A DNA stretch of 64,000 bases from a virus (IMGVR_UViG_3300028601_000027:24898-88897); one strand, 5' to 3'; shown: positions 42,520 to 63,646, numbered from the stretch's first letter. Notes: a model not told the origin generated them from the sequence alone. Made by a program: numbers and translations.

Positions 42520-42543
42520 TTGGCTTTTAACTAGTTGTTAATA

Positions 42544-43308: not shown

Positions 43309-43327
43309 GTACAGTATCCTACTGTAC
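43309..43327 (-). promoter_or_regulatory. DGR target-recognition hairpin (8-bp stem, GGA loop)
   Basis: GTACAGTA-GGA-TACTGTAC overlapping the stop codon, just 3' of VR1. Confidence 0.85.
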
Positions 43328-44203
43328 AACTTCAAGAACAGGACGCCACCCAAAAGAAGGATACGTAGTGTTAGCATAAGTAGTAGCGAAGTCAGCTATA
43401 CCATTACGGCCACGAATGACACGGCGAGTAGTATCTAATCCTCGCTCCTGACACAATGTATAAGCACCATCTCCAGTATCTTTATAAAAAAGATATAATT
43501 CTGCATTTGTGAAATTAGCCCAATTTGCTCCATCTTGTGGTCCACCATGTCTAGTAGTTTCATAACCACCATCCATACCAATAGTAGGATCAGTACAATT
43601 AGGTACTGCGGTATGTACTCTATACAATAAATCATTCCATTCGCTACCACCACCTGCATCATCTGTACACTGGTGATTATCAACTCCTTCTACAGCAGGA
43701 TCAGTAGCAGAACCAGTCATTAATCTTACTTTATAAGTAACTCCACCATACATAACTTCTGCATTTTGTGGTGTTGATCCTGTAGGACCATTATCACCAG
43801 TACCGTATACAGCACCCGCTAAGTAAATATCATTCCATGATAAGTTATATCTTAGAGTTTTCTTAGCAATAAATATTATTTTAGCAACACCATCTTTATT
43901 GCAGTCTGCATTTGGTCCAACATAGAACTTTAGCCATCCAGCATCGGAATTAAATGCGGTTCCCGCAGTCAATCCGATATCAGCGGCAAGGGTAACACCA
44001 TCTACTAATTCAGTAGAAGTAACTAATCCCATATAACCAGTATCGGTAGTTTCATCGTAATTACCAGCGGCAACCATATCATCGTAGTTACCACCCGGAG
44101 AAATATAAGTACCACCCGGACCCAAATCAACTTCCCACCATTGCACATATTTTTCCTCAAACAACTTTCCTTCTTCACCAGAATTATATTTATAATCTGC
44201 CAT
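43319..44203 (-). CDS. DGR remote target protein (putative C-type-lectin-fold receptor-binding protein)
   Basis: C-terminus carries VR1; NSDAGWLKF, AKKTLRYNLSW, SEWNDL, GWRPVL; lies in tail cluster. Confidence 0.85.
   Translation of the reverse strand: MADYKYNSGEEGKLFEEKYVQWWEVDLGPGGTYISPGGNYDDMVAAGNYDETTDTGYMGLVTSTELVDGVTLAADIGLTAGTAFNSDAGWLKFYVGPNADCNKDGVAKIIFIAKKTLRYNLSWNDIYLAGAVYGTGDNGPTGSTPQNAEVMYGGVTYKVRLMTGSATDPAVEGVDNHQCTDDAGGGSEWNDLLYRVHTAVPNCTDPTIGMDGGYETTRHGGPQDGANWANFTNAELYLFYKDTGDGAYTLCQERGLDTTRRVIRGRNGIADFATTYANTTYPSFGWRPVLEVVQ
43339..43426 (-). repeat. DGR variable repeat VR1
   Basis: 88 bp; 14 mismatches to TR, all at TR adenines; no indels. Confidence 0.97.
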
Positions 44204-44216
44204 CTAATTTTCTCCT

Positions 44217-44633
44217 TTAGTTTATCTCTGTATCTACTAACAGATATAATAAGTTTTCATTTATATCCCTATTTAGTGTTTCAATAGTGCCATCATAAAA
44301 TTCTAATTCAAATTCAACCCTAAATGGACCACCAGCCCTCAAATCGCCTTCCTGAAAATCAGTCCACACTATTCCGTTTTGCTCATCAACCACTTCACAA
44401 TTAACAGTTACTATTTCCTCAGCAGTCACTACTTCATCATCAACTACATTCTCTACTATATATTTAATGTGCATCTCAGCTTTAGCTAAAGTTCCATTAC
44501 TCAAGTCTTGGTCTAAATTTAATTGTAAGTTAGTGGTATCATTTTCCACTAATCTAAATTGTGGTTCTATTTCTGGTTCTCTTAGGGCTTCAGCTTCCCT
44601 AGCCAACATATCCTGAAAACAAGTTGTAGCCAT
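44217..44633 (-). CDS. BppU-like baseplate upper-protein domain
   Basis: GIVWTDFQEGDL..GGPFRVEFELEFYDGTIETL. Confidence 0.6.
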   Translation of the reverse strand: MATTCFQDMLAREAEALREPEIEPQFRLVENDTTNLQLNLDQDLSNGTLAKAEMHIKYIVENVVDDEVVTAEEIVTVNCEVVDEQNGIVWTDFQEGDLRAGGPFRVEFELEFYDGTIETLNRDINENLLYLLVDTEIN

Positions 44634-44645
44634 GATAGCACCTCC

Positions 44646-45005
44646 TTAATGATAAGCGCCATCAATAGAAAATTCCACATTAATGTCACCATCTACTAAT
44701 CCAGTAAATTCTAATATTACACTTTCTTCATTGAAACTAATAGGAATAGGGAAACGATACTTAGCGCCACCATCGAAAGTGTATTCACTAACTTTTAACA
44801 ATCCACCTTCATTAGTGACATTATAGTAATAATCTTCCCCTACCTTTTCCTCATTATATTTAACCTTCATTGCTACAGTATCAGAACCACCAGCAACATA
44901 ATCAATATATGCTACTACCCCAATACCCTTAGCGGTTCCTTGGTTTAAGTATTCGTAAACAATAGTATCACCTACTACTGTTCCAGTTTCGCTAGTTAAT
45001 GCCAT
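44646..45005 (-). CDS. Putative virion protein
   Basis: Beta-rich ORF downstream of late motif 45041. Confidence 0.55.
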   Translation of the reverse strand: MALTSETGTVVGDTIVYEYLNQGTAKGIGVVAYIDYVAGGSDTVAMKVKYNEEKVGEDYYYNVTNEGGLLKVSEYTFDGGAKYRFPIPISFNEESVILEFTGLVDGDINVEFSIDGAYH

Positions 45006-45112
45006 ATTATCCCCCTACGTTTAAGTTGTTGTTTTATTATTATTTATCCTAAACAAAACCCCTACCTAAAAACTAAGTAGGGGCTAAGTTGATTACAATT
45101 CATACTTACAGA

Positions 45113-45391
45113 TTATTGTAATTTCTTAAGGTTTTGTACTGCAATCTCAATAGCCGCATTGATTAGACTAGCCTTAGCTTCTACACCTTTTTGTTTAAGG
45201 TCTTTCTCAATCCTATCAAATGCTACTTCTCGTTTCTCACTAGAAGTTAAATCAGCATTAACCAAATCTCTTACAGTATCCATAGCAATATCTAATACTA
45301 TCTTACCAGTAGCACCAAGAAAGCTAACCACTAGTGGTTTAATGTAGCCCCAAATTCCACCCATAAACAGTTTAATTGCATCAAACATCAT
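45113..45391 (-). CDS. Holin-like protein (LL-H-like)
   Basis: Amphipathic N-half; EKREVAF...INAAIEIAV. Confidence 0.5.
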   Translation of the reverse strand: MMFDAIKLFMGGIWGYIKPLVVSFLGATGKIVLDIAMDTVRDLVNADLTSSEKREVAFDRIEKDLKQKGVEAKASLINAAIEIAVQNLKKLQ

Positions 45392-45501
45392 TTCCTCCTA
45401 AATAGTTTTTTGAAAAAGTTAATAACAACATACTCCCAATCTACACGCCATTTCTTATTGTAGCTGAAATCAGGAATCTTAATTTTATCTTTTAGACTCA
45501 T
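45388..45501 (-). CDS. Small protein (37 aa, below track cutoff)
   Basis: MSLKDKIKIP...FRRK; AGGAGG RBS; late motif 45518; ATGA overlap. Confidence 0.5.
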   Translation of the reverse strand: MSLKDKIKIPDFSYNKKWRVDWEYVVINFFKKLFRRK

Positions 45502-45607
45502 TTGTTCCTCCTAATACTATTTATCCCTAAACACAAAAAGGATACTCAACTAAGAGTACCCTTTTTATATGTATACATATCATATACAACAATATAAAAT
45601 TAATATA

Positions 45608-45835
45608 CTATTTCTCCTTGAAACTAGGGGTTACACTAGTAGTTTCCTTGAAGGAATTGAAAATACCTAGCATCATTAATACTGAAGGTAATAGTTGTGC
45701 TACTACTATTAATGCACAGAACCCTAGAAACATCCACACTAGAAGTCCTGAATGGTCTACTCTGCCTACTGTAGAGGCGATTGCGGGGGTTACACTAACT
45801 AGACTTAAAATAATTGCTAACATTAGTTTTTTCAT
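45608..45835 (-). CDS. Small membrane protein resembling a Desulfuromonadales/Geobacter family
   Basis: Signal peptide then HSGLLVWMFLGFCALIVVAQLLP. Confidence 0.6.
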   Translation of the reverse strand: MKKLMLAIILSLVSVTPAIASTVGRVDHSGLLVWMFLGFCALIVVAQLLPSVLMMLGIFNSFKETTSVTPSFKEK

Positions 45836-46029
45836 TTTCTTACTCCTTTTATATTAAGATAATTATTATTTACCCTAATACCATTGCAGTAACTATGCCA
45901 ATATTGGAGTGAAGGGGCTAACTTACATCTAAGTAAGAACTCATTGCTACAGGGATAACAGTTAAACCATGTAACTTATTGGTTTGATTAGTATTTTCGT
46001 AATCAAAATTTAAGCAACCACAATAATCT

Positions 46030-46398
46030 TCAAACATCATTCTCTCCTTCATCCCTAGATAAACCTAGTAATTCCCTAGTGTATTCATAAGTTACTATTC
46101 CATGTTCCATTCGTACATTCTTAAATGTACCATCAGAAATACTATGATGTATAGCGCAATTATCACAATCACCAGTAACATTTAAATAACTACTATTAAT
46201 AGTCATGTTAGTTAAGTTGATAGGTTTATCTGTCATGTTCACAATTATACTATTAACTAGTACTACATCAGTTAAAACGAAATCCCCATCTACTACGCAA
46301 TCATCAATTACACAAAGACCGTGTTCTTCTACGTTCCCATTAATGTAATTTTCCTCTACATTTACCTCAACATATACTACACTGTATTCTACTTTCAT
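46030..46398 (-). CDS. Beta-helix-like hypothetical protein
   Basis: V/I-x-N/D-S/C repeats; paralog of 46408-46647. Confidence 0.55.
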   Translation of the reverse strand: MKVEYSVVYVEVNVEENYINGNVEEHGLCVIDDCVVDGDFVLTDVVLVNSIIVNMTDKPINLTNMTINSSYLNVTGDCDNCAIHHSISDGTFKNVRMEHGIVTYEYTRELLGLSRDEGENDV

Positions 46399-46407
46399 CT
46401 TAATCCC

Positions 46408-46647
46408 CTATTCAATAAACCTAAGTAGCTTACCATTTTCAATCTTCACATTACGATAACTATCATTAGATTTAGTGTCTATTATAGTAGAGTTAACACA
46501 ATCCTTACTAATGTTCAACTCACTATTGATAATCATGCAATTATTCAAAAACAAAACATGATCAGTTTCATTAGTGATAACAGAATCGACTATTGTGCAA
46601 TTTTCCTCAACTATCTTACCAACAAATTTAGAATCATATAATGGCAT
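46408..46647 (-). CDS. Beta-helix-like hypothetical protein
   Basis: NCTIVDSVI..NCMIINSEL aligns with upstream paralog. Confidence 0.55.
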   Translation of the reverse strand: MPLYDSKFVGKIVEENCTIVDSVITNETDHVLFLNNCMIINSELNISKDCVNSTIIDTKSNDSYRNVKIENGKLLRFIE

Positions 46648-46662
46648 CTCAAATCTCCTTGT

Positions 46663-47199
46663 TTAAATCATACATAATATATTATATGCTTTTTGGCTTT
46701 CTGTCAACATAATTTTGTGTCCACTATCTACATTTACAAACACTTCCTTATCACTAGCAGAATCCTTAGCCTTAGAATTTAATACCGTAATAATAGCAAA
46801 GGAATCGTTTTTGTTTGTACCTTCGGTGCGTCTTAGGGATATAATCATCCCACGAGTTTTATCCTTAGATAAGATAGCCCATTCATCCTTATACTTTAAC
46901 TCTTCCCTATCCATAGAGTTTAGTTTTTCTAATCCCTTATCGACAAACTTAGTAAACTCGGTATCTTTATAACTATCCCACCACGCTCTATGTTCTCTAT
47001 CTTGTTGAACATGACCAGTTACTATTACTTGTTGTTTGGTTTTAGGATTAGTGTACACTACTTTAGGGCTAGGTGGAGGCGATTTTTGTTTTGGCTCAGA
47101 AACATAAGTTTCTCTCGGTGCGCTCTGTTTCTTCTTAGCTTCAGCCCTAGCCATGATCTGAGCTATGTTTTCTCCCAAATATTCCTTATAAGATAACAT
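46663..47199 (-). CDS. Putative internal head protein
   Basis: MLSYKEYLGE resembles the T4 capsid-targeting sequence; late motif 47232. Confidence 0.5.
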   Translation of the reverse strand: MLSYKEYLGENIAQIMARAEAKKKQSAPRETYVSEPKQKSPPPSPKVVYTNPKTKQQVIVTGHVQQDREHRAWWDSYKDTEFTKFVDKGLEKLNSMDREELKYKDEWAILSKDKTRGMIISLRRTEGTNKNDSFAIITVLNSKAKDSASDKEVFVNVDSGHKIMLTESQKAYNILCMI

Positions 47200-47285
47200 A
47201 TTGTAACTCCTTGATAATTATAGGTTACTAATATTTATCTTACAAAAAAAGCCCCTAATGTTAGTTAGGGGCTAGGTAGAAGTTA

Positions 47286-47561
47286 CTATGAAATGAAAAC
47301 GTGACCGTCTTTATAACTTATGTTACCACACTTAAACTCTTTTACTGATTCAGGATAGAAACAACGATATTGTTTCTTCTGCACATCAAACACTGTGATT
47401 ACTGTATTAGGTGTAGTCTTAGTTCCACCCTTGAGATACTTAGTAACCTTAGTGCGTCCTACCAAATGGCGAATAGTACCATCACGCTTAGTAAAAACTA
47501 CTTTGAAGAATTTACCATTAGTGTCATTTACCAGAGTCCTTACATTCATAATTACCTCCAT
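47286..47561 (-). CDS. SH3/WYL-like small phage protein
   Basis: FKVVFTKRDGTIRHL...VFDVQKKQYRCF. Confidence 0.7.
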   Translation of the reverse strand: MEVIMNVRTLVNDTNGKFFKVVFTKRDGTIRHLVGRTKVTKYLKGGTKTTPNTVITVFDVQKKQYRCFYPESVKEFKCGNISYKDGHVFIS

Positions 47562-47626
47562 TTTAAAAGTGTCTTACCTCAAATTGTGATTACAGTGTAC
47601 ACTAACTGGTTTTATTTGTCAAGTGA

Positions 47627-47839
47627 TTAATATTGTTTTGCGGTAAAATATCCTAGTACGTAAGAGATCACCATAGGTCCAAAGACTGTTAGGGCTAATG
47701 TCCAACCATCTTGAAATCCTAGTGTCATCTTTCCAGCAGTAACAATAACCAGAAACCAATAAACGTAGTTCACAATTTTGACCATATTTCCCTCCATGTT
47801 AAAATTAGTGTTTCGTTCAACTTGACTATACCTTAACAC
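47627..47839 (-). CDS. Small membrane protein (likely start MVKIV)
   Basis: Two TM segments. Confidence 0.55.
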   Translation of the reverse strand: MLRYSQVERNTNFNMEGNMVKIVNYVYWFLVIVTAGKMTLGFQDGWTLALTVFGPMVISYVLGYFTAKQY

Positions 47840-47909
47840 TATTGGTTATTATTGTCAAGAAAAAAAACCCCTTAGCTACAAAATAATAACTAAGGGGTTT
47901 AGAGTTAAT

Positions 47910-50900
47910 CTAACTACCGCATTTACTCCAGAAACAAGCAGGACAAGTTTTGCATCCTTCTATCATTTGTAATTCTGTCTCACATTCTGGACATTTAATA
48001 CCAGTACTTTTGTCTACCATGTAGTTAGCCAAAAACACTTTCAATCTATATACTAGAGAATTAATAGGAATATCCAAATCATCTAAAGCGTTAACCACTT
48101 TCTCTATCTTCACATTATGCCTAAGTAGCATACCAATAGCACGAGTAATTTTCACCACATTAGATTGGTTGTTGCTTTTCTTAGTGTTCTCTTCAATGAT
48201 TTCTTTTTCGATTCCTTCTTCCCTAGCTAGTTCTTCTAAGGCGGCTATAGTATTATGTGCGTTAATTTGTTTCTCTGAATGATTAGTGTGAACAAAAATA
48301 GCAAAAGGTCTAGTCTTAGCCTTATCCTTAAATGCCACATGAACATACCATTTTCTACCTTCTGAAGTAATCTTAAATCCACGCATAGGATATTCAGCAG
48401 GTAGAGAAACACTTTCCTTAATAACATCTCCCTTAATATGTTCTTTCCAAACATCAAAGAACTCGTGTTGTTCTTCTTTAACTTCCGTGGACAATACCGA
48501 ACCACGAATCTCATTAGGAATATAAGTAGTAGTTCCCTTTAGTTTGTTTTGCCATGCTTCAAAATACAAATCCTTAAAATCATCAAACGGGTAATTCTCA
48601 GGCAAATTAATAGTCTTTGAAACACTAGCATCTATATACTGTTGAACAATAGTCTGAATCTCTAAATGATCCTTAGCTTTTAAGTCATCAATAGTTTCAA
48701 AATAGTCTGGTAATTCTGCGTCTTCTCCAAACTCTTTTTCATATAGCCACACAGCATAATCAGTGACAGGTTCTTGTTTTTCTGTTCCGTCATCTTGTTT
48801 TACCTTACGATAATACTTAGTGCAGAAAATAGGCTCAATACCAGAACTACAATTATTCATTATCAAACTAGTAGTGCCAGTAGGGGCGATAGTTAAAAGT
48901 CTGCTATTATAAATGCCGTATTGTTTAATGCTATCTCTAATCTTATTTGGCAATCTCTTAGCAAAATCAGACTCTAACAATCTATCATCATACCCATCAA
49001 AGGTTTTACCTAACCCCTTAGCGATTTCACATGAAGTGGCATAAGAGATATCCCTTAGATTTTGAGATAGTAACCTTGTTAGTTCTTTCCCCTCTTTACT
49101 ATATTTTAGTTTCATCATACAAAGACAATCAGCTAAACCAGTAAAACCTAATCCTATGGGTCTTTTCTTTTGCGCTACCTCTTTCTGTTCTTCTAGTGGA
49201 TAATAATTAATATCAATGATTTTGTTTAGGAAAACAATCATCAACTTAATAGATTTCTCTAATGTATCAAAATCAAATTCTGGTTGTTTAAATGCGTCCT
49301 TAACCATAGTTGAAAAATTAATAGAGCCTAAATTACAACTAGAATATGGTGGAAGTGGTTCTTCACCACAGTTAGACACATTGCAACCTTGAGTCCAATA
49401 AGTATGTGATTTGTTATCTACTGTGATATCAAAAACCTCTTCTTCTGAAACAAAACTAACACACTTAATATCGTAATTAGTTTTACCTTTCTTGTGACTT
49501 GTTGTTCTGATTTTCTCGTTTTTGTATTCTTGAAGGAAACCAATCATAGAAGCAAATTTATCTCTATCAGTAGAAACATTCAGGTCATAACTTTCTTTAC
49601 ATAAATACTCACCATTACTAAATTTAGTCATTGTTGGTTTATTAGTGGTATAATAACTCTTAATACCTAATGCGTTCAACATTGTTTGTACATCTTCTAT
49701 TATTTGTTTAGAAGTAGTTTTAAGTGTAATTCTATTATTAACCACAGAACCATTAGCACTAAACAATCCACGGAGAAATCCCGCCATTTTATCGAAGGAT
49801 TTCATATATCTCTCAGGAACAGCACGATTATAAGTATAAGGTAGTTCCTCTGCTTGGATTGTTGTGTTAACCTCATAAGCAGTTTCTACTATTCCACTTC
49901 TGTTTCTAGTAATTAATGGCGCAATTTCAGAACCAAAATAATCAGAATCGTTTTCTCCAATGTGTAACAAAACAAGATTATTAGACGCTTTATGTACTGA
50001 ACCATCACCTAAAACTAATCCATCCATAACGTCTTGTGGATTTAACGTAATGTTCCCAACAGGACCAGAAATTATATCTATAGATTCCGCTTCTTTAGCT
50101 TCTATTTTTTCTCCATCACTCACTACTTTGTGGTTTTCAGTACCATAAAAAACACCAGCATTTGTTTCGTATTTATAAACCTTCTTTACACCAGTTCCCC
50201 ATTTATTAATAATAGTTGTCCAACCATCTTTTGACCAAATCTGATCACCAATAGAAACATCGCCGAAAGTTTTTATTCCTTCCTTCGTCAACAACTTAGC
50301 CCAAGATGGTTGACATGGATTAGTTACAGCAATGTATTCATCATACCAAAGGTTATTCTCATTATTAATAGTGTCTAAGAATAACACTCCCGGTTCACTG
50401 TACTTATAAGTAGCCTTCATTATTTTCTCGTAAAGGTCTTTAGCCTTTACTGTTTCATATACTTTTACGGGATAACCTTTTTCTTTCCATTCTTTAATGT
50501 TACCATACCATTCTTCATTATACGATTCGTGATTAGTATCAGGAAAAACTAAATCCCAATCACTATCATTTTCTACAGCTTTCATAAAATCATCAGAAAC
50601 GCCTACACTAATATTAAAATTAGTTAACACTCCTTTAGTTTGTTTCACTTCGATAAACTCTTCAATGTCTGGATGCCATACATCTAATACTCCCATTTGA
50701 GCACCACGTCTATTGTTCCCACCCTTAATACTATCACAAGTAGAATCAAATACTTTCATAAAGGAAATAGGACCTGTAGACTCACCACCACTAGTAGAAA
50801 TGTTAGCGTTTTTGGGTCTAAGTACAGAAAAAGAATACCCATTACCACCACCTGATTTCATAGTCATAGCCGCTTCTTTAACAGCATCCATGATACTACT

Positions 50901-51206
50901 CATGCTATCTTTCTTGATTGGCAAGACATAACAGTTTGAGTAAGTTTGGTTTTTTCTATCAGTGCCTAGAGCATAGATAGGTCTTCCAGCTAACATACAA
51001 TTATGGTTAGAAATCAACTCGTAAGCTAGTTTCTTAAATGCTTCTACAGCGCTAACTTCCATTATATCACAAAACACTTTTAGTTCCTTGTCAGTACAAC
51101 TATCCACTAAAGCGTTTACTATTCTATGATAAAACTGTTCTTCAGATTCACCACTGTAACGATATTTCATATTCCATATTTCATTAGATATTTGTTGTCG
51201 AATCAT
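47910..51206 (-). CDS. nrdJ: Class II (B12-dependent) ribonucleotide reductase with intein
   Basis: SNCYV, GGNGYSFS, RRGAQMG, TNP|C..|CGEE..CNLGSIN, TIAPTGT, C-terminal Zn ribbon. Confidence 0.9.
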   Translation of the reverse strand: MIRQQISNEIWNMKYRYSGESEEQFYHRIVNALVDSCTDKELKVFCDIMEVSAVEAFKKLAYELISNHNCMLAGRPIYALGTDRKNQTYSNCYVLPIKKDSMSSIMDAVKEAAMTMKSGGGNGYSFSVLRPKNANISTSGGESTGPISFMKVFDSTCDSIKGGNNRRGAQMGVLDVWHPDIEEFIEVKQTKGVLTNFNISVGVSDDFMKAVENDSDWDLVFPDTNHESYNEEWYGNIKEWKEKGYPVKVYETVKAKDLYEKIMKATYKYSEPGVLFLDTINNENNLWYDEYIAVTNPCQPSWAKLLTKEGIKTFGDVSIGDQIWSKDGWTTIINKWGTGVKKVYKYETNAGVFYGTENHKVVSDGEKIEAKEAESIDIISGPVGNITLNPQDVMDGLVLGDGSVHKASNNLVLLHIGENDSDYFGSEIAPLITRNRSGIVETAYEVNTTIQAEELPYTYNRAVPERYMKSFDKMAGFLRGLFSANGSVVNNRITLKTTSKQIIEDVQTMLNALGIKSYYTTNKPTMTKFSNGEYLCKESYDLNVSTDRDKFASMIGFLQEYKNEKIRTTSHKKGKTNYDIKCVSFVSEEEVFDITVDNKSHTYWTQGCNVSNCGEEPLPPYSSCNLGSINFSTMVKDAFKQPEFDFDTLEKSIKLMIVFLNKIIDINYYPLEEQKEVAQKKRPIGLGFTGLADCLCMMKLKYSKEGKELTRLLSQNLRDISYATSCEIAKGLGKTFDGYDDRLLESDFAKRLPNKIRDSIKQYGIYNSRLLTIAPTGTTSLIMNNCSSGIEPIFCTKYYRKVKQDDGTEKQEPVTDYAVWLYEKEFGEDAELPDYFETIDDLKAKDHLEIQTIVQQYIDASVSKTINLPENYPFDDFKDLYFEAWQNKLKGTTTYIPNEIRGSVLSTEVKEEQHEFFDVWKEHIKGDVIKESVSLPAEYPMRGFKITSEGRKWYVHVAFKDKAKTRPFAIFVHTNHSEKQINAHNTIAALEELAREEGIEKEIIEENTKKSNNQSNVVKITRAIGMLLRHNVKIEKVVNALDDLDIPINSLVYRLKVFLANYMVDKSTGIKCPECETELQMIEGCKTCPACFWSKCGS
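49371..50315 (-). mobile_element. Intein with LAGLIDADG endonuclease in nrdJ (315 aa)
   Basis: CQPSW...TENHK...DGLVLGDGS...GFLRGLFSANG...VFDITV...VSN|C; inserted at the NPCGE catalytic Cys. Confidence 0.92.
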
Positions 51207-51224
51207 TAAGGACTCCCGTTTTTA

Positions 51225-51446
51225 TTAGTCTTTATAATCTGTCTTATACCATCCATCACCTTTTAGGATAAAATGGCTAGAGGATAGCGTTTTACTCATT
51301 TTAGCGCCACAATTTTCACACACCATAGAACCATATACTTTATTGTTACGTTCTATCCTTTCCCTAAGTTCATCACACTTATCACACTTATATTCAATTA
51401 TCGGCATTTTTGTATCAACTCCTTTCTTAGAGGGAAAAATAGCCAC
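51225..51446 (-). CDS. FmdB-family Zn-ribbon protein
   Basis: MPIIEYKCDKC...CENCG...FILKGDGWYKTDY. Confidence 0.85.
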   Translation of the reverse strand: MAIFPSKKGVDTKMPIIEYKCDKCDELRERIERNNKVYGSMVCENCGAKMSKTLSSSHFILKGDGWYKTDYKD

Positions 51447-51477
51447 TATACTTTTTATAATATAGTGGCTATATAAT

Positions 51478-51564
51478 TGGTAGGGGCGAAGGGATTTGAA
51501 CCATTAAGTCCTAGTGGACATCAGATTTTGAGTCTGACGTGTTTGTCAGTTTCACCACACCCCC
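51478..51564 (-). tRNA. trnL: tRNA-Leu(CAA), 87 nt, encoded CCA
   Basis: GGGGGTG/CGCCCCT acceptor, TCAGA-CTCAAAA-TCTGA anticodon arm, GTCC/GGAC variable arm, TTCAAAT loop. Confidence 0.85.
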
Positions 51565-51575
51565 AAAACTAGTTA

Positions 51576-51944: not shown

Positions 51945-51984
51945 GTAGAATTAACTTTCATTTGATTGTATTCTACCACGATGA

Positions 51985-53954: not shown

Positions 53955-54029
53955 GTCTTACCTCCATCTTAAATAGTAGTGTTTCGTTCAATGTGATTAC
54001 AATATAACAGGATACTCTTTATTTGTCAA

Positions 54030-54731
54030 CTAAAAAATCCCTTCTAAGTTATTATCTGATTGTTTTAATCTTTCTTGGGCTATGTTATACCATTTCTCTT
54101 TCCATTCTATTCCTATAAATTTGCGTTTATTATTAATAGCCGCTACACCAGTAGAACCAGTTCCCATAAAGAAATCAGCTACAACATCACCTTCATCACT
54201 ATGGTTCTTAATGTACTTATTAAGTAATCCTAATGGTTTAATAGTGGGATGTCCATATCTTTCTTTATCTTTCCTATTAGTAGCTGATTTATACACTAAA
54301 CTCTTAGTTTGATAAGTACCACCTATTCTCTTGTTCTTGTTAATGTATACACAAAATTCTATATCTTTCAGATAATTATTGTTACATAGTGGTGCAGGAT
54401 CACTCTTATGCCAAATAGTAATACCGTAATTATAACCGTTTGCTTCAGCATAAGCAATATAATCTTTTAGTTGTCTCATTGAGCAAAAGGTGACTAAGTT
54501 ATAAGTTCCAGTTTTGAATTTTGGTTTAATTAAATCAAGAAAACCAGATACATCATAACCATCTAATATCTTCATGTCTCTCATTTCATTTACATATTCT
54601 CTTTCACGCATAAACCCACCACCACCTGTATGATTAATCTCATAAGGTGGATCAGTTAGTACTAAATCTATACTGCCATCCTCTATCTCTTTCATAACTT
54701 CAAAACAGTCATTGTTATATAATGTATACAT
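54030..54731 (-). CDS. DNA N6-A/N4-C methyltransferase (beta class)
   Basis: TDPPY, HPTIKP, DFFMGTGSTG. Confidence 0.9.
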   Translation of the reverse strand: MYTLYNNDCFEVMKEIEDGSIDLVLTDPPYEINHTGGGGFMREREYVNEMRDMKILDGYDVSGFLDLIKPKFKTGTYNLVTFCSMRQLKDYIAYAEANGYNYGITIWHKSDPAPLCNNNYLKDIEFCVYINKNKRIGGTYQTKSLVYKSATNRKDKERYGHPTIKPLGLLNKYIKNHSDEGDVVADFFMGTGSTGVAAINNKRKFIGIEWKEKWYNIAQERLKQSDNNLEGIF

Positions 54732-55414: not shown

Positions 55415-55426
55415 TAGCTTTTCCTA

Positions 55427-55642
55427 TCATCCGAAATGTGAGTTAATGTCGTTCTTGTAATAGAAACATCGTTCTGTCTCTTTATAAGATTTTTGATATC
55501 TAAATTCTACATAATCCTTAAACTCTTCAAGCTCTCTGTCTAGTTTATTTATTTTCCTTAAAGCTAGGATTCCCATAATCCCACCCATAAACATAACTGT
55601 AATCACAGTTCCTACACATATTAGTGTGGCATACTCTTCCAT
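55427..55642 (-). CDS. Small membrane protein
   Basis: N-terminal TM. Confidence 0.6.
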   Translation of the reverse strand: MEEYATLICVGTVITVMFMGGIMGILALRKINKLDRELEEFKDYVEFRYQKSYKETERCFYYKNDINSHFG

Positions 55643-55657
55643 AATAAATCTCCCTTT

Positions 55658-58147
55658 TTAAAAAATATCCTCTAGTGATTCTTTATCTTTCTCTAAATCA
55701 AAATGCACCCTATCTGCCATCAACTTGATAACATTGTAATACACCTTATCATACTGAGTTTTATAGTCAACATATTTTTCTAAACTAGGTTCAGGTAAAT
55801 CCCTAATGAAACCTAATACGTGTTGATTAAATACTGGATTAGGTTTAGTTAGATAGAGAAACTTAATCTTATCTCCTTCTACTATCTTATTCTTATCTAT
55901 ATTATGTGTCTCGATATAACGATTATAATTATGTGCCGCCCTAACTCCAATAGGAGTACCACTAACAAAACTACCATTAGCCTTAACCCACTTAGCCAAA
56001 TTGTTAGCACTACGAGGGAAAGCTATTTGTTTAGGTGTTAAACTATAGAATATCTTCTTGACCTCATCTATGTACTCTAACACATTTTCATTCTTCATCA
56101 TCTTGATTAGTGTTGTCTTAAGATAAGGTTTAATTATACTAGGAGTACTAGACCTAACTATTTCTAATCCCGTTACATCTAACTTAGGTTCAGAATATCT
56201 TACTCCTTCCTTATCAGTGATTAGGCAAGCGTATTTAGCTGGTGCTGTAATCAAGTAATGACTACATATCTTCTCACGTTTAAGTATTAGTAAGTTCCTA
56301 TCAGCATTAAGATAATCACATAATTTCTGATACCCATTTGCTATTAGTTGTTCTAAGTGTTCCTTATAAAATGTATCTATCTCTTCTGTACCTTCAGCAA
56401 TTCCATCTAAATCTATGAAACAGGAATCGGTATGGGTGAACCTGAGTCTACTACTCTTACCATAATTTTCATCAAGATAATCAGTGACTACCTTAGAAGC
56501 ATACTTAATAGCTAATTGACCACTAATTGTGATACTAGATGCTAATTCAGGGGAGTAGTACCTACAAAATTTTGACGCAAGGATGCCGTAACCACTATTC
56601 ATTAGTAGTTTAACAGCTTGTTCAAATGTATGTAAGTTACTGTATTTATTAACTAGTTCTTCTTTTTCTTCTTCACTTCCCTCAAAGGTTTGGATTAATT
56701 TATCAGTTTCTAGTTTTTCCTTCTTACTAACATCACGTTCATCCATTAGTAATTGATAGATAGCAGGATAAAACCCAACTTTATCTTTTCTAAACTTATA
56801 ACCACTACCAGCCAGAATAGTGTTATCGTTATGCTCGATTTCCATGTTTACTAGTCTTTCATCAATACCATTAGATTTAACTTCTAATCTATCTTCTGGT
56901 ATCAACGTATCAGGACTAATGTTTAGAGTAATACTAAGTGAAGGATATAGCGCCTTTAGGTCAAGACTGATTACGTTTTTGAATATACCTGCTTCTATAT
57001 CTTTCTTAATATAACCACCACTAATCTTTTTCTCCATTCTAGTAGTGTATGGTGGAATAGAAATATCCCTTTTGTTTAAGTAGCTGTAAATAAGACAATC
57101 CCATTGTTTAATGCTACCCATTACATCATCAAAGTTACACTTACAGAAATAAGCAACAGTAGCCACTAGATTGAATAGCTTACGCTTATTATCTATCATA
57201 GCTAATAATTCAACGTCTTTAATGTTGTATTCTACATATTTCTGAGGATTGTTAACCCTAAGTTCTTCTAGGTTGTCGTATTCTTCGTATCCAACCTTAT
57301 CCTCACCTAGTTCTACTCCAGCCACAAAACTAAGTGTATTTGATTCATACTTGCCAACATTTTTCTGATAGAGTAACATGTAATCAACTAGTGCTACTCC
57401 ATCAATCTTGTTATCATATCTATCCTTATTGTTTTCATCTACTCGGTGTTTAGATTGTACTCTACCCCTAACTGGTGATAACATTCTCGATTTCTTCTTA
57501 CCGATTACCTTTATACATCTATTAATAGTGTAAGGGTCATCATAACCTTCACTGTTATATCCAGATAGAATATCAGGTTTTAGTTTATCAATCAACTTAA
57601 CAAAATAGGTTAGCAATTCTTTTTCTGAGTAACAGAACTTATAATGGAGTTTACCACTAACAGTAATTTCCATTTGTTCTTTATAAAACTTTTCGGTACT
57701 AAGACAATATACTGTACCCCTAAATACATCCTTAACGGTAATAGCTGTGATAGCCCCGTTTGCTTCATGTGGTGGACTAAACTTGCCAGTATCAGGGTCT
57801 TTCTTATTCTCAATATCATATAACAACACAGTTAGCTTATTGACATCATAATTAATAGCTTCTGGATACTTGTCATTTATAAATTGATAACATGGTTCTA
57901 TATCATCATATAGTTTTAGTATTTCGCCATAACTCTTCTTATAATCATACCATTCAGATACACCATTAAACACTTTCTTAGTAGTCAATTCGTCATGATA
58001 GGTTTTCTTATGTGCTTCTGATTCGTCAGTAGTCTTAGTACTAAGGTATGGTTTATAATCTTCCACACGGATAAACTTATCCCCATTATCATCATAGCCA
58101 ATATGGAATAGTTCTTTTCTGTTATTGAACACATAACTATAAAACAT
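55658..58147 (-). CDS. Family B DNA polymerase (gp43-like)
   Basis: YDIE (ExoI), GYNSEGYDDPY, YNIKDV, DLKALYPS, KLLMNSGYG, HTDS, GLEIVRSSTP. Confidence 0.93.
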   Translation of the reverse strand: MFYSYVFNNRKELFHIGYDDNGDKFIRVEDYKPYLSTKTTDESEAHKKTYHDELTTKKVFNGVSEWYDYKKSYGEILKLYDDIEPCYQFINDKYPEAINYDVNKLTVLLYDIENKKDPDTGKFSPPHEANGAITAITVKDVFRGTVYCLSTEKFYKEQMEITVSGKLHYKFCYSEKELLTYFVKLIDKLKPDILSGYNSEGYDDPYTINRCIKVIGKKKSRMLSPVRGRVQSKHRVDENNKDRYDNKIDGVALVDYMLLYQKNVGKYESNTLSFVAGVELGEDKVGYEEYDNLEELRVNNPQKYVEYNIKDVELLAMIDNKRKLFNLVATVAYFCKCNFDDVMGSIKQWDCLIYSYLNKRDISIPPYTTRMEKKISGGYIKKDIEAGIFKNVISLDLKALYPSLSITLNISPDTLIPEDRLEVKSNGIDERLVNMEIEHNDNTILAGSGYKFRKDKVGFYPAIYQLLMDERDVSKKEKLETDKLIQTFEGSEEEKEELVNKYSNLHTFEQAVKLLMNSGYGILASKFCRYYSPELASSITISGQLAIKYASKVVTDYLDENYGKSSRLRFTHTDSCFIDLDGIAEGTEEIDTFYKEHLEQLIANGYQKLCDYLNADRNLLILKREKICSHYLITAPAKYACLITDKEGVRYSEPKLDVTGLEIVRSSTPSIIKPYLKTTLIKMMKNENVLEYIDEVKKIFYSLTPKQIAFPRSANNLAKWVKANGSFVSGTPIGVRAAHNYNRYIETHNIDKNKIVEGDKIKFLYLTKPNPVFNQHVLGFIRDLPEPSLEKYVDYKTQYDKVYYNVIKLMADRVHFDLEKDKESLEDIF

Positions 58148-58389
58148 TATAATTCTCCAAACACATCATCTAGATTACCAGATAGGTCTTTCTTTAGTAA
58201 GTTGTTTTGTAAGCACTCATTTTTATATATCATGTATAAGTTATGGTCTTCTTTGATTAATTCTGCTATAACTTCTGGTTCTTCGCCATTATCTAACATA
58301 TCAGTTAGAATGTTAATTAGAGAATCCTTATTCTCATTATAAGCGTCATAGATTTGTTTCTTGATAGTCATTTCCTCATCCCTTCTCAA
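58147..58389 (-). CDS. Hypothetical protein
   Basis: ORF after promoter TTTACA-17 bp-TATAGT. Confidence 0.6.
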   Translation of the reverse strand: MRRDEEMTIKKQIYDAYNENKDSLINILTDMLDNGEEPEVIAELIKEDHNLYMIYKNECLQNNLLKKDLSGNLDDVFGEL

Positions 58390-58487
58390 TGGTTATAAAT
58401 TACAATATCATTTACTATAACACTATATATTAGATTTGTAAAGTGAAAAGCTAGGGGTTAATCTAAACCCCTAGCTCTATTTGTGGT

Positions 58488-60884
58488 CTATAAGATTTTA
58501 CTAGATATTTCAGCTAGTTCACTGCGTTCACACTTACTTAGTGAAATGTGTGCCGCTATTGATTGGTCTTTAAATTTTTCTACTGCATACACGAGTCCAT
58601 TATTATCCGCAGATAGAAACGGGTTATCAATCTGATTGTAATCACCAGACATTACTATCTTAGAATTAGCACCAGCCCTAGTTAGTACTGTTAAAATTTC
58701 TTGCTTTGTTAAATTTTGGCAATTATGGACTACATAACCAGTATTCATATCTGTAGTAGTTCCACCGTTCACAGTAGCAACAAAATTATGATTATCTTCA
58801 ACCTCCATATCAAACACATGTTGAGATTCTTCTAATTCATTAACAGCAGTAACAGTAGTCACAGCATAATTAGCAAATTTGTTATTCCATTCATAATTAC
58901 CAATAGGCAAATTACTTTTATAAGCACAACTTTCATCTAAATAAGGACTAACTATAGAAAGCAATCTCTTTGTTCCTTCCACTGTGACGTATATGTAATT
59001 ATATGTCTTGTTTCTATCTTTTTTGTGATAACTTTTTAGGTTATTCTGTATTCCAAATTTATCCTTTAACATGTCAGATATCTTTTGGCTACTTTCGTCA
59101 TTGAAACTGTTTATGTGGAACACCACTGTATTAGAGTCAGAACTATAACTTCCATCATCCATAAAGAATATAGCTAACCCCTTTTCGTTGATTATTTCTA
59201 ACATCCAATCATCAATGTGTTCACCTCTAGGGTGTTTTATTTTTTCTGGCAACACAAAAGAATTTGTTGTAAAATCATATAAGGTTCCTTTAGAATAACC
59301 ATTATTTTCTATCTGTCTAACTTTATCTTGTCTGTTAAAAATAGTGGCTTTTTTTCTAAGGTATTGCTCTTGTTTTACGCCATGATTCACTGTCATTCTA
59401 TATGTGTTTTGTGACACTTCTCGAATAGAACCATCACCTAACCTAGACCCAATAACTACTTGTAATTGATCGCCATTCAAATAGTGACAATTTTGGCGAT
59501 TTTTCCCCCCACTCATAATTAACGGATCACCTATTTCTAATTCTCCTGCTTTCACCCAACCCTTATTAGCAACTAAGAAGGGATGGTTACTTGTGCATTT
59601 TATCCTCTTCGCTCCACTCACAATTTGAATTAATGGCTTTATCCCCTTATGGCTAACCGATATTATGTTTTTATATTCGAATTCATTAGTTGATTCGTTA
59701 AAAGTTCTAACTTTTGGTAATTCGTTTCCTCTTATATAAGAATGAAAAAGTGACCCTATTTGTATATTCCCCTTTTCGGTTGCTACTTTCTGTTTATACG
59801 GGAAACATTCATCCACGAGTATAAATTGATAAGGGATACTCCTACCCCTAATAAATGTTAATGGTAGCATTTCAATTTTACCAGCTTCCTCTAATTCTTC
59901 AAATGGGGTTCGTTTAGCCACTTTCTTACTCTTAGGTTGATCATCACTAAAACAAAATAGAAATTCTAAGTTATCCATAATAGGACCAAACCAAGGAATT
60001 AACTTTGTCTTAAGGTCCCCTTTTAAGTAACCAATATCTTTCTGAAAAGGCATAATAGGTCTAGCTACAGTTAATTTCCTATACATAGATTGTTCTAAAA
60101 CTGCTTCTAAGGCACTCGCAATAGCTATTAGACTCTTACCACTACCAGCCGCACCAGTTAGCGTCACAAGGCTAATTTCAGGGTCTAAGAGGAAGTTTGC
60201 CGCTATCTGTTGTTCTAAGTTTGCACACTCTAAACCAAATGGCGCTAACTTATTATCCATTAGTATTAACCTACCACCTTTTTGACTAGTAATAGCCCTC
60301 ACTTTAGGATCACTATTGTTAACTAGTACTACTGCTTCATTAGGATAAAACTCTTCGTCTACTCCTACTACACTCTTATCTACATAGCCATTTTCATATA
60401 CACTCTGAATTACATCATGGGAAACATATTCTTCTCTCATACCAGTGTAAAGGTTAGATACGTTTACCTTATCATCTAAGTAGTCTTCAGTTTCTATTTC
60501 TAGTACTCTAGCCTTTACTCTTAGGTTTACATCCTTTGTGATTAAGATTGGATTTTCATCACGTTCCTTTAACATTAGACAAGTGTTTAATAATTTGTCA
60601 TCAGCTACATCTTCTCCCTCAGCATGCGATAAATCTACACTATTAGGTAATTCGCTATTAGTTACCATTATCACGTTTTCATTTTTATCAATTATTTCTT
60701 GTTCGATTAGCTTAGTTACATGTCTAGCATTTACACCAACTTGGTCTGTCCTCTTTTTCTGTTTATCCAATTCCCATAATATAACAAATGGTATGTAGAT
60801 TTTATTACCATTTAGTATTTTAGTGAACGAGTTATAATCATGTATTAGTACGTTGGTGTCTAGGACATAGGATTTAGGATTCAT
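58488..60884 (-). CDS. phoH: PIN-domain PhoH ATPase (PhoH2/YlaK-like) with intein
   Basis: VLDTNVL, ELDKQK, ADDK, ITKDVNLRVKA; GAAGSGKS, IRGRS, LVDE|..|CQNL, GDYNQID. Confidence 0.9.
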   Translation of the reverse strand: MNPKSYVLDTNVLIHDYNSFTKILNGNKIYIPFVILWELDKQKKRTDQVGVNARHVTKLIEQEIIDKNENVIMVTNSELPNSVDLSHAEGEDVADDKLLNTCLMLKERDENPILITKDVNLRVKARVLEIETEDYLDDKVNVSNLYTGMREEYVSHDVIQSVYENGYVDKSVVGVDEEFYPNEAVVLVNNSDPKVRAITSQKGGRLILMDNKLAPFGLECANLEQQIAANFLLDPEISLVTLTGAAGSGKSLIAIASALEAVLEQSMYRKLTVARPIMPFQKDIGYLKGDLKTKLIPWFGPIMDNLEFLFCFSDDQPKSKKVAKRTPFEELEEAGKIEMLPLTFIRGRSIPYQFILVDECFPYKQKVATEKGNIQIGSLFHSYIRGNELPKVRTFNESTNEFEYKNIISVSHKGIKPLIQIVSGAKRIKCTSNHPFLVANKGWVKAGELEIGDPLIMSGGKNRQNCHYLNGDQLQVVIGSRLGDGSIREVSQNTYRMTVNHGVKQEQYLRKKATIFNRQDKVRQIENNGYSKGTLYDFTTNSFVLPEKIKHPRGEHIDDWMLEIINEKGLAIFFMDDGSYSSDSNTVVFHINSFNDESSQKISDMLKDKFGIQNNLKSYHKKDRNKTYNYIYVTVEGTKRLLSIVSPYLDESCAYKSNLPIGNYEWNNKFANYAVTTVTAVNELEESQHVFDMEVEDNHNFVATVNGGTTTDMNTGYVVHNCQNLTKQEILTVLTRAGANSKIVMSGDYNQIDNPFLSADNNGLVYAVEKFKDQSIAAHISLSKCERSELAEISSKIL
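58722..59807 (-). mobile_element. Intein with LAGLIDADG endonuclease in phoH (362 aa)
   Basis: CFPYKQ...CTSNHPF...GSRLGDGS...AIFFMDDGS...VFDMEVEDNHNF...VHN|C. Confidence 0.92.
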
Positions 60885-60903
60885 GTAATACCTTTCTTAT
60901 GGG

Positions 60904-61932
60904 TTATGATTTTCTCCAACTAGCCAACTTAGCTAAACCTGACAAACCAAACACTGTGTTATTATCTATTAGTTTCATTAAGTTTTCGTTATTCATTCCA
61001 TTCACTACCATCTGGTTAATGTCTTTTTCCTTTATGTTAGTGGGGAATAAGACTACACTATATCCTTTCTCTAGGTTTTTCTTCATGAAGTCACAAGTGT
61101 ATTTGTTTCTCCTTTCGTTATCTGTTACTAATACTACCTTCTTCTTATCTAGGAGATTACAGTAATCGCAGACTGCATCTAGTCCACCTAATGCACCAAC
61201 TACTCCTATACAATTATCAATAAACAAGCTATCAATTTGTCCTTCTGTGACGTACACTTTCTTATGTATGTTTAGTTTATCATAACCATACACTTTAGGT
61301 ATGTCTTCGACAAACTTAATAGTTAAGTATTTGGGTGATTTATTGTCAATACTTCTACCTGATGCACCAAATATGTTTCCGTCTCTATCCCTAAAGGGGA
61401 ATACTATTCTTCTATCTCTATAGTATTCATTTTGGAAATTATCTGGTTGTTGTTCCTTACACCAGTTATAGAAATTATCTGTATAGTAACAATACTCTAA
61501 TACTTTATCTAGTGGTAGTTTTCTGTCGAAAGTGTATTGAATAGCATCATGACTAGATGGTAAATCTCCTAATCTATTTAGGTCTAGTGTTTCTAACTTA
61601 TTCTGAAACGGATTATCACATGATATGTTTGGTCGTTGTTTGTATTTATTCTCAAATGAGTTTAAATAAGATTCTTTAATGTAATCATCATAAACATAGG
61701 GATAAAATGTTTTGAGGAAGTTGTGAAAATTATTAGAATATCCACAGTTAAAACAGTGCATTGTCAATTGGTCACTAGAAGTATAGAACCATGCGCGTTT
61801 TTTGGTAGATGATATTTGACTATCATTGCAAATAGGGCAACGGAAATTGGCAAAGTAGTTAGCGTGATTCTTACGTTCAAATTTATCTAGTGGTAAGGAT
61901 AGTGCGTATTTTTGGTCTATTAGTAGTGACAT
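60904..61932 (-). CDS. DNA primase (gp61-like)
   Basis: FRCPICNDS...CFNC, RIVFP, EGQIDSLF, DNERRN, KDIN; start moved from track 61965 to ATG 61932. Confidence 0.9.
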   Translation of the reverse strand: MSLLIDQKYALSLPLDKFERKNHANYFANFRCPICNDSQISSTKKRAWFYTSSDQLTMHCFNCGYSNNFHNFLKTFYPYVYDDYIKESYLNSFENKYKQRPNISCDNPFQNKLETLDLNRLGDLPSSHDAIQYTFDRKLPLDKVLEYCYYTDNFYNWCKEQQPDNFQNEYYRDRRIVFPFRDRDGNIFGASGRSIDNKSPKYLTIKFVEDIPKVYGYDKLNIHKKVYVTEGQIDSLFIDNCIGVVGALGGLDAVCDYCNLLDKKKVVLVTDNERRNKYTCDFMKKNLEKGYSVVLFPTNIKEKDINQMVVNGMNNENLMKLIDNNTVFGLSGLAKLASWRKS

Positions 61933-61955
61933 ATTGAAACTCCTTTCTAGGGAGT

Positions 61956-61996
61956 AGTATAACACAAAAAAAGGGGCTAGTCAACGACTAACCCCT
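61956..61996 (-). terminator. Terminator after DGR RT overlapping the primase promoter
   Basis: aggggctagtc/gactaacccct stem + T7; TTGACT 61979-61984, 17 bp, TATACT 61956-61961. Confidence 0.75.
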
Positions 61997-62027
61997 AAGT
62001 TGATTAAAATGGTAGTTGTTTGTGATA

Positions 62028-63038
62028 CTACCAATTTTCTCCTATTTCTAGCGAACACACAAAATTATGAGTATCACCATGTTTAGCATGTCCAATCCAA
62101 CTTCTATACATTTGTATCATTTTATGTTTATCTATATTACCAGATTGATATGATCGTATTTTACTTTTAATTTTCCTTTTTGAATCGTTTCTAAGTAATC
62201 TGTGCGTAGCGTAATGTTTGAATCCTATAGCGTTAACTCCTTGTTTTATTGGGAATATCTTACTTTTGTCTTCATTCAATCGCAATTTCAGCTTGTTATG
62301 TAAAAATTGTTCACTCTTTTCTAATACACCCTTAGCTTCTTTTTTAGATGAAACAATTATAACCACATCATCAGCATATCTAACATAATATTTCAGTTTC
62401 ATGTTCCTTTTCATGTATTGATCAAATTCATTCAAATATATGTTAGCAAATATCTGACTAGTCAGATTGCCTAACGGTAATCCTATTTCGCCGGGAGATG
62501 AATCTATAACAACATCCAATAACTTCAACGCAGAACGATCAGTTATCTTTTTCCTCAATAACTGCTTTAATACATCTCTGTCAATATTGTAGAAGAATTT
62601 TTTGATATCCAATTTCACAATATAAGCACTTTCACCGTATTCCCATTTGGATTTTCTTAGGAAATGTCCAATGCGATCATTGCAAGCATGAGTTCCTTTA
62701 TTTTCGATACACGCATAACTATCGTATATGAAACAAGGGAAATATATTTCTTTAATCACATTGTGTATCATGTGTTGCACAATCTTATCACGGAATCTTG
62801 GAGCATATATTTCTCGCTCCTTTGGTTCGTATACCTTAAATTTAGTATATTCTCCTACTTCGTATGTCTGATTACTTAGCTCGTAAACTAAATAGTTAAG
62901 GTTTACTGTTTCGTTATTCACAAAATGTATAGCAGGTAATTTGTATTTCTCCTTACCTAATCTAGTTTTATGTAAAGCATAGTATACATTTTCTATGTTT
63001 ATTATATCCGGGTATATGTTTTTATAACTCTTCGACAT
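62028..63038 (-). CDS. brt: DGR reverse transcriptase
   Basis: KEREIYAPRFRDKIVQH, DSYAC..KGTH, LDIKKFF, GLPLGNLTSQ, YVRYADD. Confidence 0.95.
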   Translation of the reverse strand: MSKSYKNIYPDIINIENVYYALHKTRLGKEKYKLPAIHFVNNETVNLNYLVYELSNQTYEVGEYTKFKVYEPKEREIYAPRFRDKIVQHMIHNVIKEIYFPCFIYDSYACIENKGTHACNDRIGHFLRKSKWEYGESAYIVKLDIKKFFYNIDRDVLKQLLRKKITDRSALKLLDVVIDSSPGEIGLPLGNLTSQIFANIYLNEFDQYMKRNMKLKYYVRYADDVVIIVSSKKEAKGVLEKSEQFLHNKLKLRLNEDKSKIFPIKQGVNAIGFKHYATHRLLRNDSKRKIKSKIRSYQSGNIDKHKMIQMYRSWIGHAKHGDTHNFVCSLEIGENW

Positions 63039-63187
63039 ATAGGGTTTCCCTCTCTCCAGTACTCAGCTACATGACATTGTTAATGTGTTTACAATCTATG
63101 ATTGAAGGAATAACACTCCCTTGAATAAAACAAGTCTTGTATATGTAACCTTGATCACACATATCTGATTAATTATTACATTCAGGG

Positions 63188-63275
63188 CAGGACGCCACCC
63201 ATTATTAGTATTCGTATTGTTAGCATTATTAGTATTGAAGTCAGCTATACCATTATTGCCACGATTGACACGGCG
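63188..63275 (-). repeat. DGR template repeat (TR)
   Basis: 88 bp, 28 adenines, ten AAT triplets; ends in GGGTGGCGTCCTG shared with both VRs. Confidence 0.97.
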
Positions 63276-63304
63276 GTTACAGTGTTATCCCTTAGACTTA
63301 CAAC

Positions 63305-63646
63305 TTACCTATTTGCAGATTTACGTATATACCCGGATAATAATTTGTTTATTTCTGTTAAACTCTCGTCTATTACCACAAAATGCCCGTTGCTTATGTA
63401 TTTTCTCTCCCTAGATAGTTTCATCAACACCTTCAACAACTGTAAATGTCCATCAGCCTCCTGTAAATACACTTTCCGTTTACTCTTTACTGCATTGCCT
63501 AGTTGTATGTATTTTATTACATCGAAAAACGACTCCTTTATTCTGCTACACAAACAAAACTTCTCCGACTTCGGAAAGTTTATTAACCGAGGATATATTC
63601 GATACAATAATTCCTCAACCTTCTGTTTTACTATCAATTCTTCCAT
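63305..63646 (-). CDS. avd: Accessory variability determinant (Avd)
   Basis: 113-aa four-helix type: FPKSEKFCLCSRIK, YLQEAD..L..LK.L, EINKLLSGY; immediately upstream of TR. Confidence 0.92.
   Translation of the reverse strand: MEELIVKQKVEELLYRIYPRLINFPKSEKFCLCSRIKESFFDVIKYIQLGNAVKSKRKVYLQEADGHLQLLKVLMKLSRERKYISNGHFVVIDESLTEINKLLSGYIRKSANR

Follow-up and report, generated by a model that had tools for sequence, protein, structure and literature searches.

In the diversity-generating retroelement (DGR) of the Bordetella phage BPP-1, avd, the template repeat (TR), and the reverse transcriptase (RT) gene brt act in trans, and the initiation of mutagenic homing (IMH) sequence together with a hairpin is enough to target a foreign gene (Guo et al. 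2011, PMC3240598). The distinction between IMH and IMH* is known from the same phage (PMC5758913). Phage DGR targets that are not adjacent to the cassette, even 20 kb off, are already known: Wu et al. 2018 (NAR) found non-adjacent targets for 45/372 DGRs, with many of the phage cases within 50 kb, and two phage DGRs have their sole target 20 kb away (PMC5758913). In multi-target DGRs, a clean target can coexist with one that carries 3-nt indels and non-adenine changes (PMC5758913). DGRs in lytic phages are also on record (PMC7981956). Metagenome surveys looking only beside the RT miss remote targets (Roux et al. 2021, PMC8144416), and myDGR offers a dedicated remote-target mode (PMC6602519). 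Here, we describe a DGR on a 64,000-nt stretch of viral DNA (IMGVR_UViG_3300028601_000027:24898-88897; hereafter, the window), which makes up the final 64 kb of an IMG/VR record of 88,897 nt with an estimated completeness of 50%. We put the probability at roughly 90% that one TR of this DGR serves three paralogous target genes in a distantly T4-like phage. The TR, the variable repeats (VRs) VR1 and VR2, the RT and avd genes, and the target genes of VR1 and VR2 all lie on the minus strand.

The TR (63188-63275) is 88 nt long, encodes RRVNRGNNGIADFNTNNANNTNTNNGWRP, and contains 28 adenines, with AAT accounting for 11 of its codons. VR1, the non-adjacent variable repeat (43339-43426), aligns to the TR over 88 nt without a gap and with 14 mismatches, each of which falls on a TR adenine (14/14; hypergeometric P = 6.2e-9 for all of them landing on A by chance). 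The adenine is replaced by T in six cases, by C in six, and by G in two, and all 14 changes affect codon position 1 or 2 of the open reading frame (ORF) at 43319-44203. The homology breaks off sharply at both borders, upstream of CGCCGTG and downstream of GGGTGGCGTCCTG, and the two repeats are spaced 19,849 nt apart. When the TR was searched against the entire 88.9-kb record, only three VR-like matches were returned, namely, VR1, VR2, and a short plus-strand match at record positions 9-31. The adenine-only pattern is a direct observation; a preliminary sequence-only reading of the window had reported it as 14 mismatches in 88 bp without indels, and realignment agreed in every particular, including the 28 adenines available in the TR.

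The remaining parts of the element are also directly observed. The cassette is arranged on the minus strand in the order target gene with VR2, avd, TR, and RT, which is the canonical DGR architecture. The TR sits between avd and the RT gene, and the reading frames of both are intact. The RT (336 amino acids [aa]; 62028-63038) matches Pfam RVT_1 at 2.8e-24, and the accessory protein Avd (113 aa; 63305-63646) matches bAvd at 5.6e-19 and 23S_rRNA_IVP at 1.7e-9, so that the proposed DGR with RT and Avd holds. DGR-clade RTs are marked by an (I/L)GxxxSQ motif plus a YxDD box, and the RT of the window contains GLPLGNLTSQ and YADD. Its closest phage relatives, at 36 to 40% identity, are the DGR RTs of Vibrio phage VP585 and of Pseudoalteromonas, Aeromonas, and crAss-like phages; the clade assignment is based on the motifs, the profile, and these best matches. 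No RT relative above 40% identity was found in IMG/VR. The identical RT protein is encoded on six contigs of other samples, and the TR is invariant in four contigs, i.e., the window and three (L010, L011, and L012) that encode the identical RT.

A common recognition module is observed at the target sites. The VRs and the TR share a GC-rich, IMH-like end, GGGTGGCGTCCTG. In VR1, this end is followed by the IMH-like flank TTCTTGAAGTT and a hairpin (43309-43338, minus strand), an arrangement kept at all three VR loci. The VR1 hairpin, GTACAGTA-GGA-TACTGTAC at 43309-43327, begins 11 nt past the VR and contains the TAG stop codon of the VR1 gene (43321-43319); it is a perfect inverted repeat, as the sequence-only reading had stated. 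The hairpin downstream of VR2 (63727-63745, minus strand) has a 7-bp stem and the loop AGGAC. The flank of the TR is an IMH*-like sequence, CCCTGAATGTAATA, unlike the VR flank, and lacks a hairpin. DGRs are recognized by an inverted repeat that follows the VRs but not the TR and by an IMH at the end of the VR that has a diverged counterpart, IMH*, at the TR. Farther downstream, an element of approximately 60 nt (43251-43308 at VR1, minus strand) is common to the three VR loci at 91 to 92% identity. When the downstream elements of approximately 100 nt were folded, only the VR3 copy was better than its shuffles (z = -2.8). When IMG/VR was scanned for exact-pattern matches to the IMH-plus-hairpin module, no other record was returned. 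As a separate observation, a second, longer inverted repeat, GTTCTAGTGG...CACTAGAAC, lies approximately 30 nt past the first hairpin, at 43251-43290, at 63664-63705, and at positions 58-96 of the full record (labeled L004, in which the VR3 locus occupies positions 1-130 and the window is preceded by 24,897 nt). The VR2 and VR3 copies are intact, the VR1 copy is degraded, and the repeat is not followed by a T-run.

The DGR had initially been described as acting at a distance. That description stands for the remote target located 20 kb away with its adenine-only changes but is incomplete, as the cassette also has an adjacent target with VR2, and a third repeat, VR3, is present. VR2 (91 nt; 63757-63847, minus strand) is located directly upstream of avd in a target gene whose ORF (63737-64000, minus strand) is open at its 5′ side at the contig end. 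The window VR2 departs from the TR by 15 mismatches at A, 3 at other bases, and a 3-nt insertion that adds one codon; the VR2 allele of contig L011 has 16 mismatches, 16/16 at A, and no indel. The last 31 nt of VR3 occupy contig positions 1-31, outside the window and on the strand opposite to VR1 and VR2, and differ from the TR at adenines only. The contig sequence after VR3 (within positions 1-130) comprises the same GGGTGGCGTCCTG end, the hairpin, and the approximately 60-nt downstream sequence. The contig start is overlapped at 98.6% identity by a metagenome contig (L009; VR3 locus at positions 1-560), which reaches 394 nt further and reveals the third paralogous target gene in its 3′ half, including a complete VR3 allele. 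VR3 lies approximately 88 kb from the TR along the contig, a distance that may differ in the complete genome. The 3′ regions of the three loci are 80 to 92% identical. A second TR that would explain VR2 was sought in the 88.9-kb record, and none was found, with the other half of the genome lying outside the search.

Activity of the DGR was judged by comparing assemblies of different samples. A JGI contig of 3,726 nt (L007; sample 3300044603) covers window positions 41782-45507. The two sequences have zero differences over the 3,638 nt outside the VR and 19 differences at 43353-43408 inside VR1, 15/19 of which are at TR-A sites; the clustering in VR1 has a Fisher P of 1.6e-32. The VR-restricted differences between these otherwise identical contigs are observed directly. 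Because the contig is identical to the window except inside VR1, the DGR appears active at this remote site, in agreement with the earlier claim of an active element. A check for population variation at VR1 had been proposed along with that claim; approximated with assemblies of other samples, it gave differences that are confined to VR1 and mostly at TR-A sites. Differences mainly at A sites also separate VR2 of L011 from that of the window and VR3 of L009 from that of the contig start. VR1 marks a break in the assembly of ENA sample ERZ27247324: the window allele is found at the start of one contig (L016), which begins within the VR1 gene, and a different allele is found at the end of another (L015), which stops in the same gene. 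Two VR1-locus contigs suggest heterogeneity within this sample. The L015 allele was left out of the set of clean alleles; with one codon inserted and a flank of the VR3 type at the contig end, it may be a VR1/VR3 assembly mosaic.

Recombination or gene conversion among the three paralogous targets and related phages could, in principle, be the main source of the VR differences. The 80 to 92% identity of the 3′ regions would allow it, L015 has clustered multi-base patches outside the VR in addition to its VR3-type flank, and the codon-12 variants TAT and TCT are common to alleles of different loci. We regard such an origin as very improbable. Among five gap-free VR alleles, 26/28 TR adenines vary compared to 7/60 other positions, which gene conversion does not account for, just as it does not account for the placement of 14/14 VR1 mismatches on TR adenines. 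Furthermore, the alleles are mostly unique instead of being mosaics of one another. Two other features of the alleles were observed. Several of them have third-position T-to-A changes in different AAT codons (yielding CAA, TTA, and AAA), and two have a one-codon insertion in the AAT-rich 3′ part of the VR; the alleles concerned were taken from window positions 63757-63847, L007:2082-2169, L009:338-425, and contig L008 (minus strand). Slippage of the RT or non-canonical mutagenesis of the kind described by Wu et al. 2018 could account for both features.

The 20-kb spacing might alternatively be an assembly artifact, i.e., a repeat-induced chimera of two strains or genomes. Both contig ends fall within VR-bearing repeats, which probably caused the assembly breaks; the record ends right after a 59-nt stretch that is identical to the VR1 gene; and the last bases of L015 are VR3-like. 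VR1, however, is internal to the contig and has unique sequence on either side. An ENA contig of 21,064 nt (k141_804000) spans the VR2 gene and the genes for the RT, primase, PhoH, DNA polymerase, ribonucleotide reductase (RNR), and the VR1 gene. This contig is independent of the window assembly, and the 20-kb spacing is therefore confirmed. With L007 and L016 confirming both flanks of VR1, a chimeric origin of the spacing is extremely improbable.

One codon of the TR distinguishes the repeats from one another. TR codon 12 is GAC, as are the corresponding codons of the window VR1 and the L011 VR2. Codon 12 is TCT in the window VR2, TAT in the L007 VR1, ACT in the L009 VR3, and TAT in L008, and each of TCT, TAT, and ACT can be reached from AAT by adenine mutagenesis. 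A related element (L014), whose RT is 83% identical, has AAT at codon 12. On the simplest reading, the TR would have switched from AAT to GAC, and individual VR copies would have been rewritten since then or not. The present TR codon, GAC, occurs in the window VR1 but not in the window VR2, so that VR1 was, if anything, written more recently than VR2. In the window strain, the remote VR1 would thus be the newer copy and the adjacent VR2 the stale one.

These data also bear on whether VR1 is a fossil that was written in the past and is no longer a substrate, so that the DGR now serves only the adjacent VR2. A single comparison of a TR with a VR is silent on when the VR was written, and VR1 has a degraded copy of the second downstream inverted repeat, both of which would suit a fossil. 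A retired VR1 is nevertheless improbable when set against the 19 differences inside the VR and none in 3,638 nt outside it, against the GAC codon that the window VR1, and not the window VR2, has in common with the present TR, and against the intact RT and Avd frames. A fuller account would be that the one DGR of a virulent T4-like phage rewrites three lectin-type virion paralogs across most of a genome of approximately 180 kb, including VR3 approximately 88 kb off, and does so asynchronously, with the AAT/GAC codon as a timestamp and the remote copy as the newer one. We propose this account tentatively and consider its chances to be slightly below even. The template codon change lets the order and frequency of homing be compared between sites in natural populations.

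The product of target gene 1 (294 aa; 43319-44203, minus strand) is predicted to belong to a family of virion proteins with a C-type-lectin (CLec) fold. The residues encoded by VR1 (263-284) are close to the C terminus, a location also seen in known DGR variable proteins. An AlphaFold model of the target, built with 66 homologs, has a predicted local distance difference test score (pLDDT) of 89 and a predicted template modeling score (pTM) of 0.88. VIA-align matched this model to TvpA (Z 7.3, the best match), Mtd (Z 6.1), and TaqVP (Z 5.9), all within the top 11, with alignments extending to target residues 292-294. The list also includes FGE, EgtB, PvdO, and many true C-type lectins, and 50/50 listed rows have the CLec/FGE fold. 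The structure prediction that had been suggested as a check for a C-type-lectin fold accordingly placed three DGR-relevant proteins among the matches. No PDB structure was matched by Foldseek at E <= 0.001 (TvpA ranked first at a weak E of 0.018), and the fold call is based on VIA-align instead. A PDB sequence search with the target returned no match. The protein belongs to PHROG 1062 and 16120, both "virion structural protein," and its homologs are annotated as virion structural proteins in large phages, such as Erwinia Ea35-70-like phages, PhiPA3, and Salicola SCTP-2. Some metagenomic homologs are fused to Mtd_N or phage-fiber domains. Multi-copy homologs of the target family were observed in jumbo phages (Ea35-70-like Erwinia phages, PhiPA3, SCTP-2, and Ralstonia phages); a published survey of jumbo phages reported no CLec/FGE-type domain in them (PMC7824862).

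By analogy with the BPP-1 system, the RT-Avd complex would copy the TR RNA with misincorporation opposite adenines. The resulting cDNA would then replace any VR that bears the recognition module, whether adjacent (VR2), 20 kb off (VR1), or at the other end of the contig (VR3), with the module at each target consisting of the GGGTGGCGTCCTG end, a short flank, and a hairpin whose loop includes GGA. The diversified residues would lie at the C-terminal end of the CLec-fold domain of a likely virion or tail-fiber-associated protein, and varied binding to host receptors would be the probable outcome. The cDNA step, homing, action in trans, and the receptor-binding role are all modeled on BPP-1 in this scheme.

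Several points weigh against a single active DGR with three targets. The Z scores of 6 to 7 are middling and support a CLec fold in the predicted structure rather than close kinship, and a Pfam search of the target returned no FGE-sulfatase or other family at E <= 0.01. The virion location and receptor-binding role of the target are presumed from its homologs and from known systems. Heterogeneity within a sample is only implied, by two alleles on two contigs of one assembly. Non-A differences or a one-codon insertion occur in the window VR2, the L007 VR1, the L015 VR1, and the L009 VR3, and such alleles need a changed version of the TR, RT slippage, or recombination between paralogs. The contig covers about half a genome and has both ends in VR repeats, and a second TR may exist elsewhere. 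Finally, the hairpin has an AT-rich stem and a 3-nt loop, whereas DGRs of the BPP-1 type have a GC-rich stem and a GRNA tetraloop (PMC3240598).

Target gene 1 lies in a small tail-fiber island. Directly downstream of the gene is a DUF4376/tail-fiber-like gene (42544-43206, minus strand; Pfam DUF4376 1.9e-10; PHROG 10508, tail fiber protein). Two further tail-fiber genes, encoding 676 and 792 aa (35114-39643, minus strand), belong to PHROG tail-fiber families and have C-terminal Pfam Peptidase_S74 chaperone domains. The N terminus of the 792-aa protein (37265-39643) matches Mtd_N, a domain of BPP-1 Mtd, at 25.2 bits, below the Pfam cutoff of 26.3. A methyltransferase-like gene and a holin are also present in this island, which is flanked by replication genes (clamp, clamp loader, RNR, DNA polymerase, and primase). 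The target had been placed in a tail cluster; the tail-fiber island around it bears this out in part, but the island is set among replication genes and is not the main tail cluster. A metagenome scan matched two loci, L009 and a fragment of a related phage (L008; Ga0265295_1009207, 10,651 nt). The latter has a target-like gene at each end and an S74 tail-fiber gene between them, and no RT was found within its 10 kb. Dispersed CLec targets near tail-fiber genes thus recur in this lineage.

The phage itself resembles T4-like phages, the Straboviridae/Kyanoviridae-type myoviruses, only in a distant sense. The record contains a T4-type replication module, with a gp45-like clamp, a gp44-like clamp loader, an RnlA/gp63-like ligase, a primase, and an RNR, but the family B DNA polymerase is only approximately 33% identical to gp43 of T4-like cyanophages. 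TerL is present. A Gp23 profile had no match in the record, which spans approximately half a genome, and gave none in control genomes either. The label "jumbo" in the sequence-only reading is unsupported: 88.9 kb at 50% completeness corresponds to a genome of approximately 180 kb, and nothing indicates more than 200 kb. The same reading had called the phage apparently lytic, which is suggested to the extent that no integrase was found in the 88.9 kb (about half a genome); the host phage is probably virulent. Inteins or homing endonucleases occur in three replication-related genes (58488-60884, 47910-51206, and 31243-33874): the PIN-PhoH protein carries an intein with a LAGLIDADG endonuclease, the RNR large subunit carries a LAGLIDADG insert, and an endonuclease ORF interrupts the clamp-loader gene, both parts of which contain intein fragments. 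An intergenic motif, TTACAATATA...TTGTCAA followed by an A-run, recurs at 3132-3189, 47801-47870, and 53972-54054, upstream or downstream of minus-strand genes, and may be a shared promoter or terminator element.

In comparison with known systems, this locus represents a well-documented DGR in a large, apparently virulent T4-like phage, where it would serve several dispersed paralogs with a presumed receptor-binding role. It leaves the understanding of how DGRs work unchanged. Mildly new are the large T4-like host lineage, the position of VR3 approximately 88 kb away along an incomplete contig, and the template timestamp. No explicit report of a DGR in a T4-like or jumbo phage emerged from a literature search; the search was incomplete and is no proof of novelty. 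DGRs have likewise been found in virulent gut phages without lysogeny genes (crAss-like and Bacteroides uniformis phages), which differ from this phage in lineage.

The DGR resembles that of BPP-1 (mtd, avd, TR, brt) in the order of target, avd, TR, and RT and in its A-specific changes at codon positions 1 and 2 (PMC3240598, PMC5758913). In both, the VR is at the 3′ end of a gene for a CLec-fold protein (in BPP-1, the receptor-binding one) and has a GC-rich IMH end and a stop-containing hairpin downstream, and the TR has a divergent IMH* without a hairpin. The two differ in the number of targets (three dispersed ones compared to one), in the TR codons (rich in AAT compared to AAC), and in the hairpin (an AT-rich 8-bp stem with a 3-nt GGA loop compared to a GC-rich stem with a GRNA tetraloop). 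BPP-1 is also a 42-kb temperate podovirus, whereas the phage described here is large, T4-like, and apparently non-temperate, with an RT identity below 40%. As in the phage DGRs of Wu et al. 2018, one TR matches additional VRs elsewhere in the phage genome with A-to-N differences only. Those cases were mostly prophages in bacterial genomes, unlike the T4-like virion genome fragment analyzed here, and typically had distances of <=50 kb, compared to the approximately 88 kb between the TR and VR3 along the incomplete contig. The gut phages nd4 and nd12 have two CLec targets served by one TR (PMC10743442), both inside the cassette and of different architectures, in contrast to the three dispersed paralogs of one family found here. 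The DGR of Treponema denticola likewise pairs one TR with several remote CLec-fold paralogs, and its TvpA ranks first among the structural matches to the target (Z 7.3); that system is cellular rather than phage-borne, and its targets are lipoproteins scattered over the bacterial chromosome.

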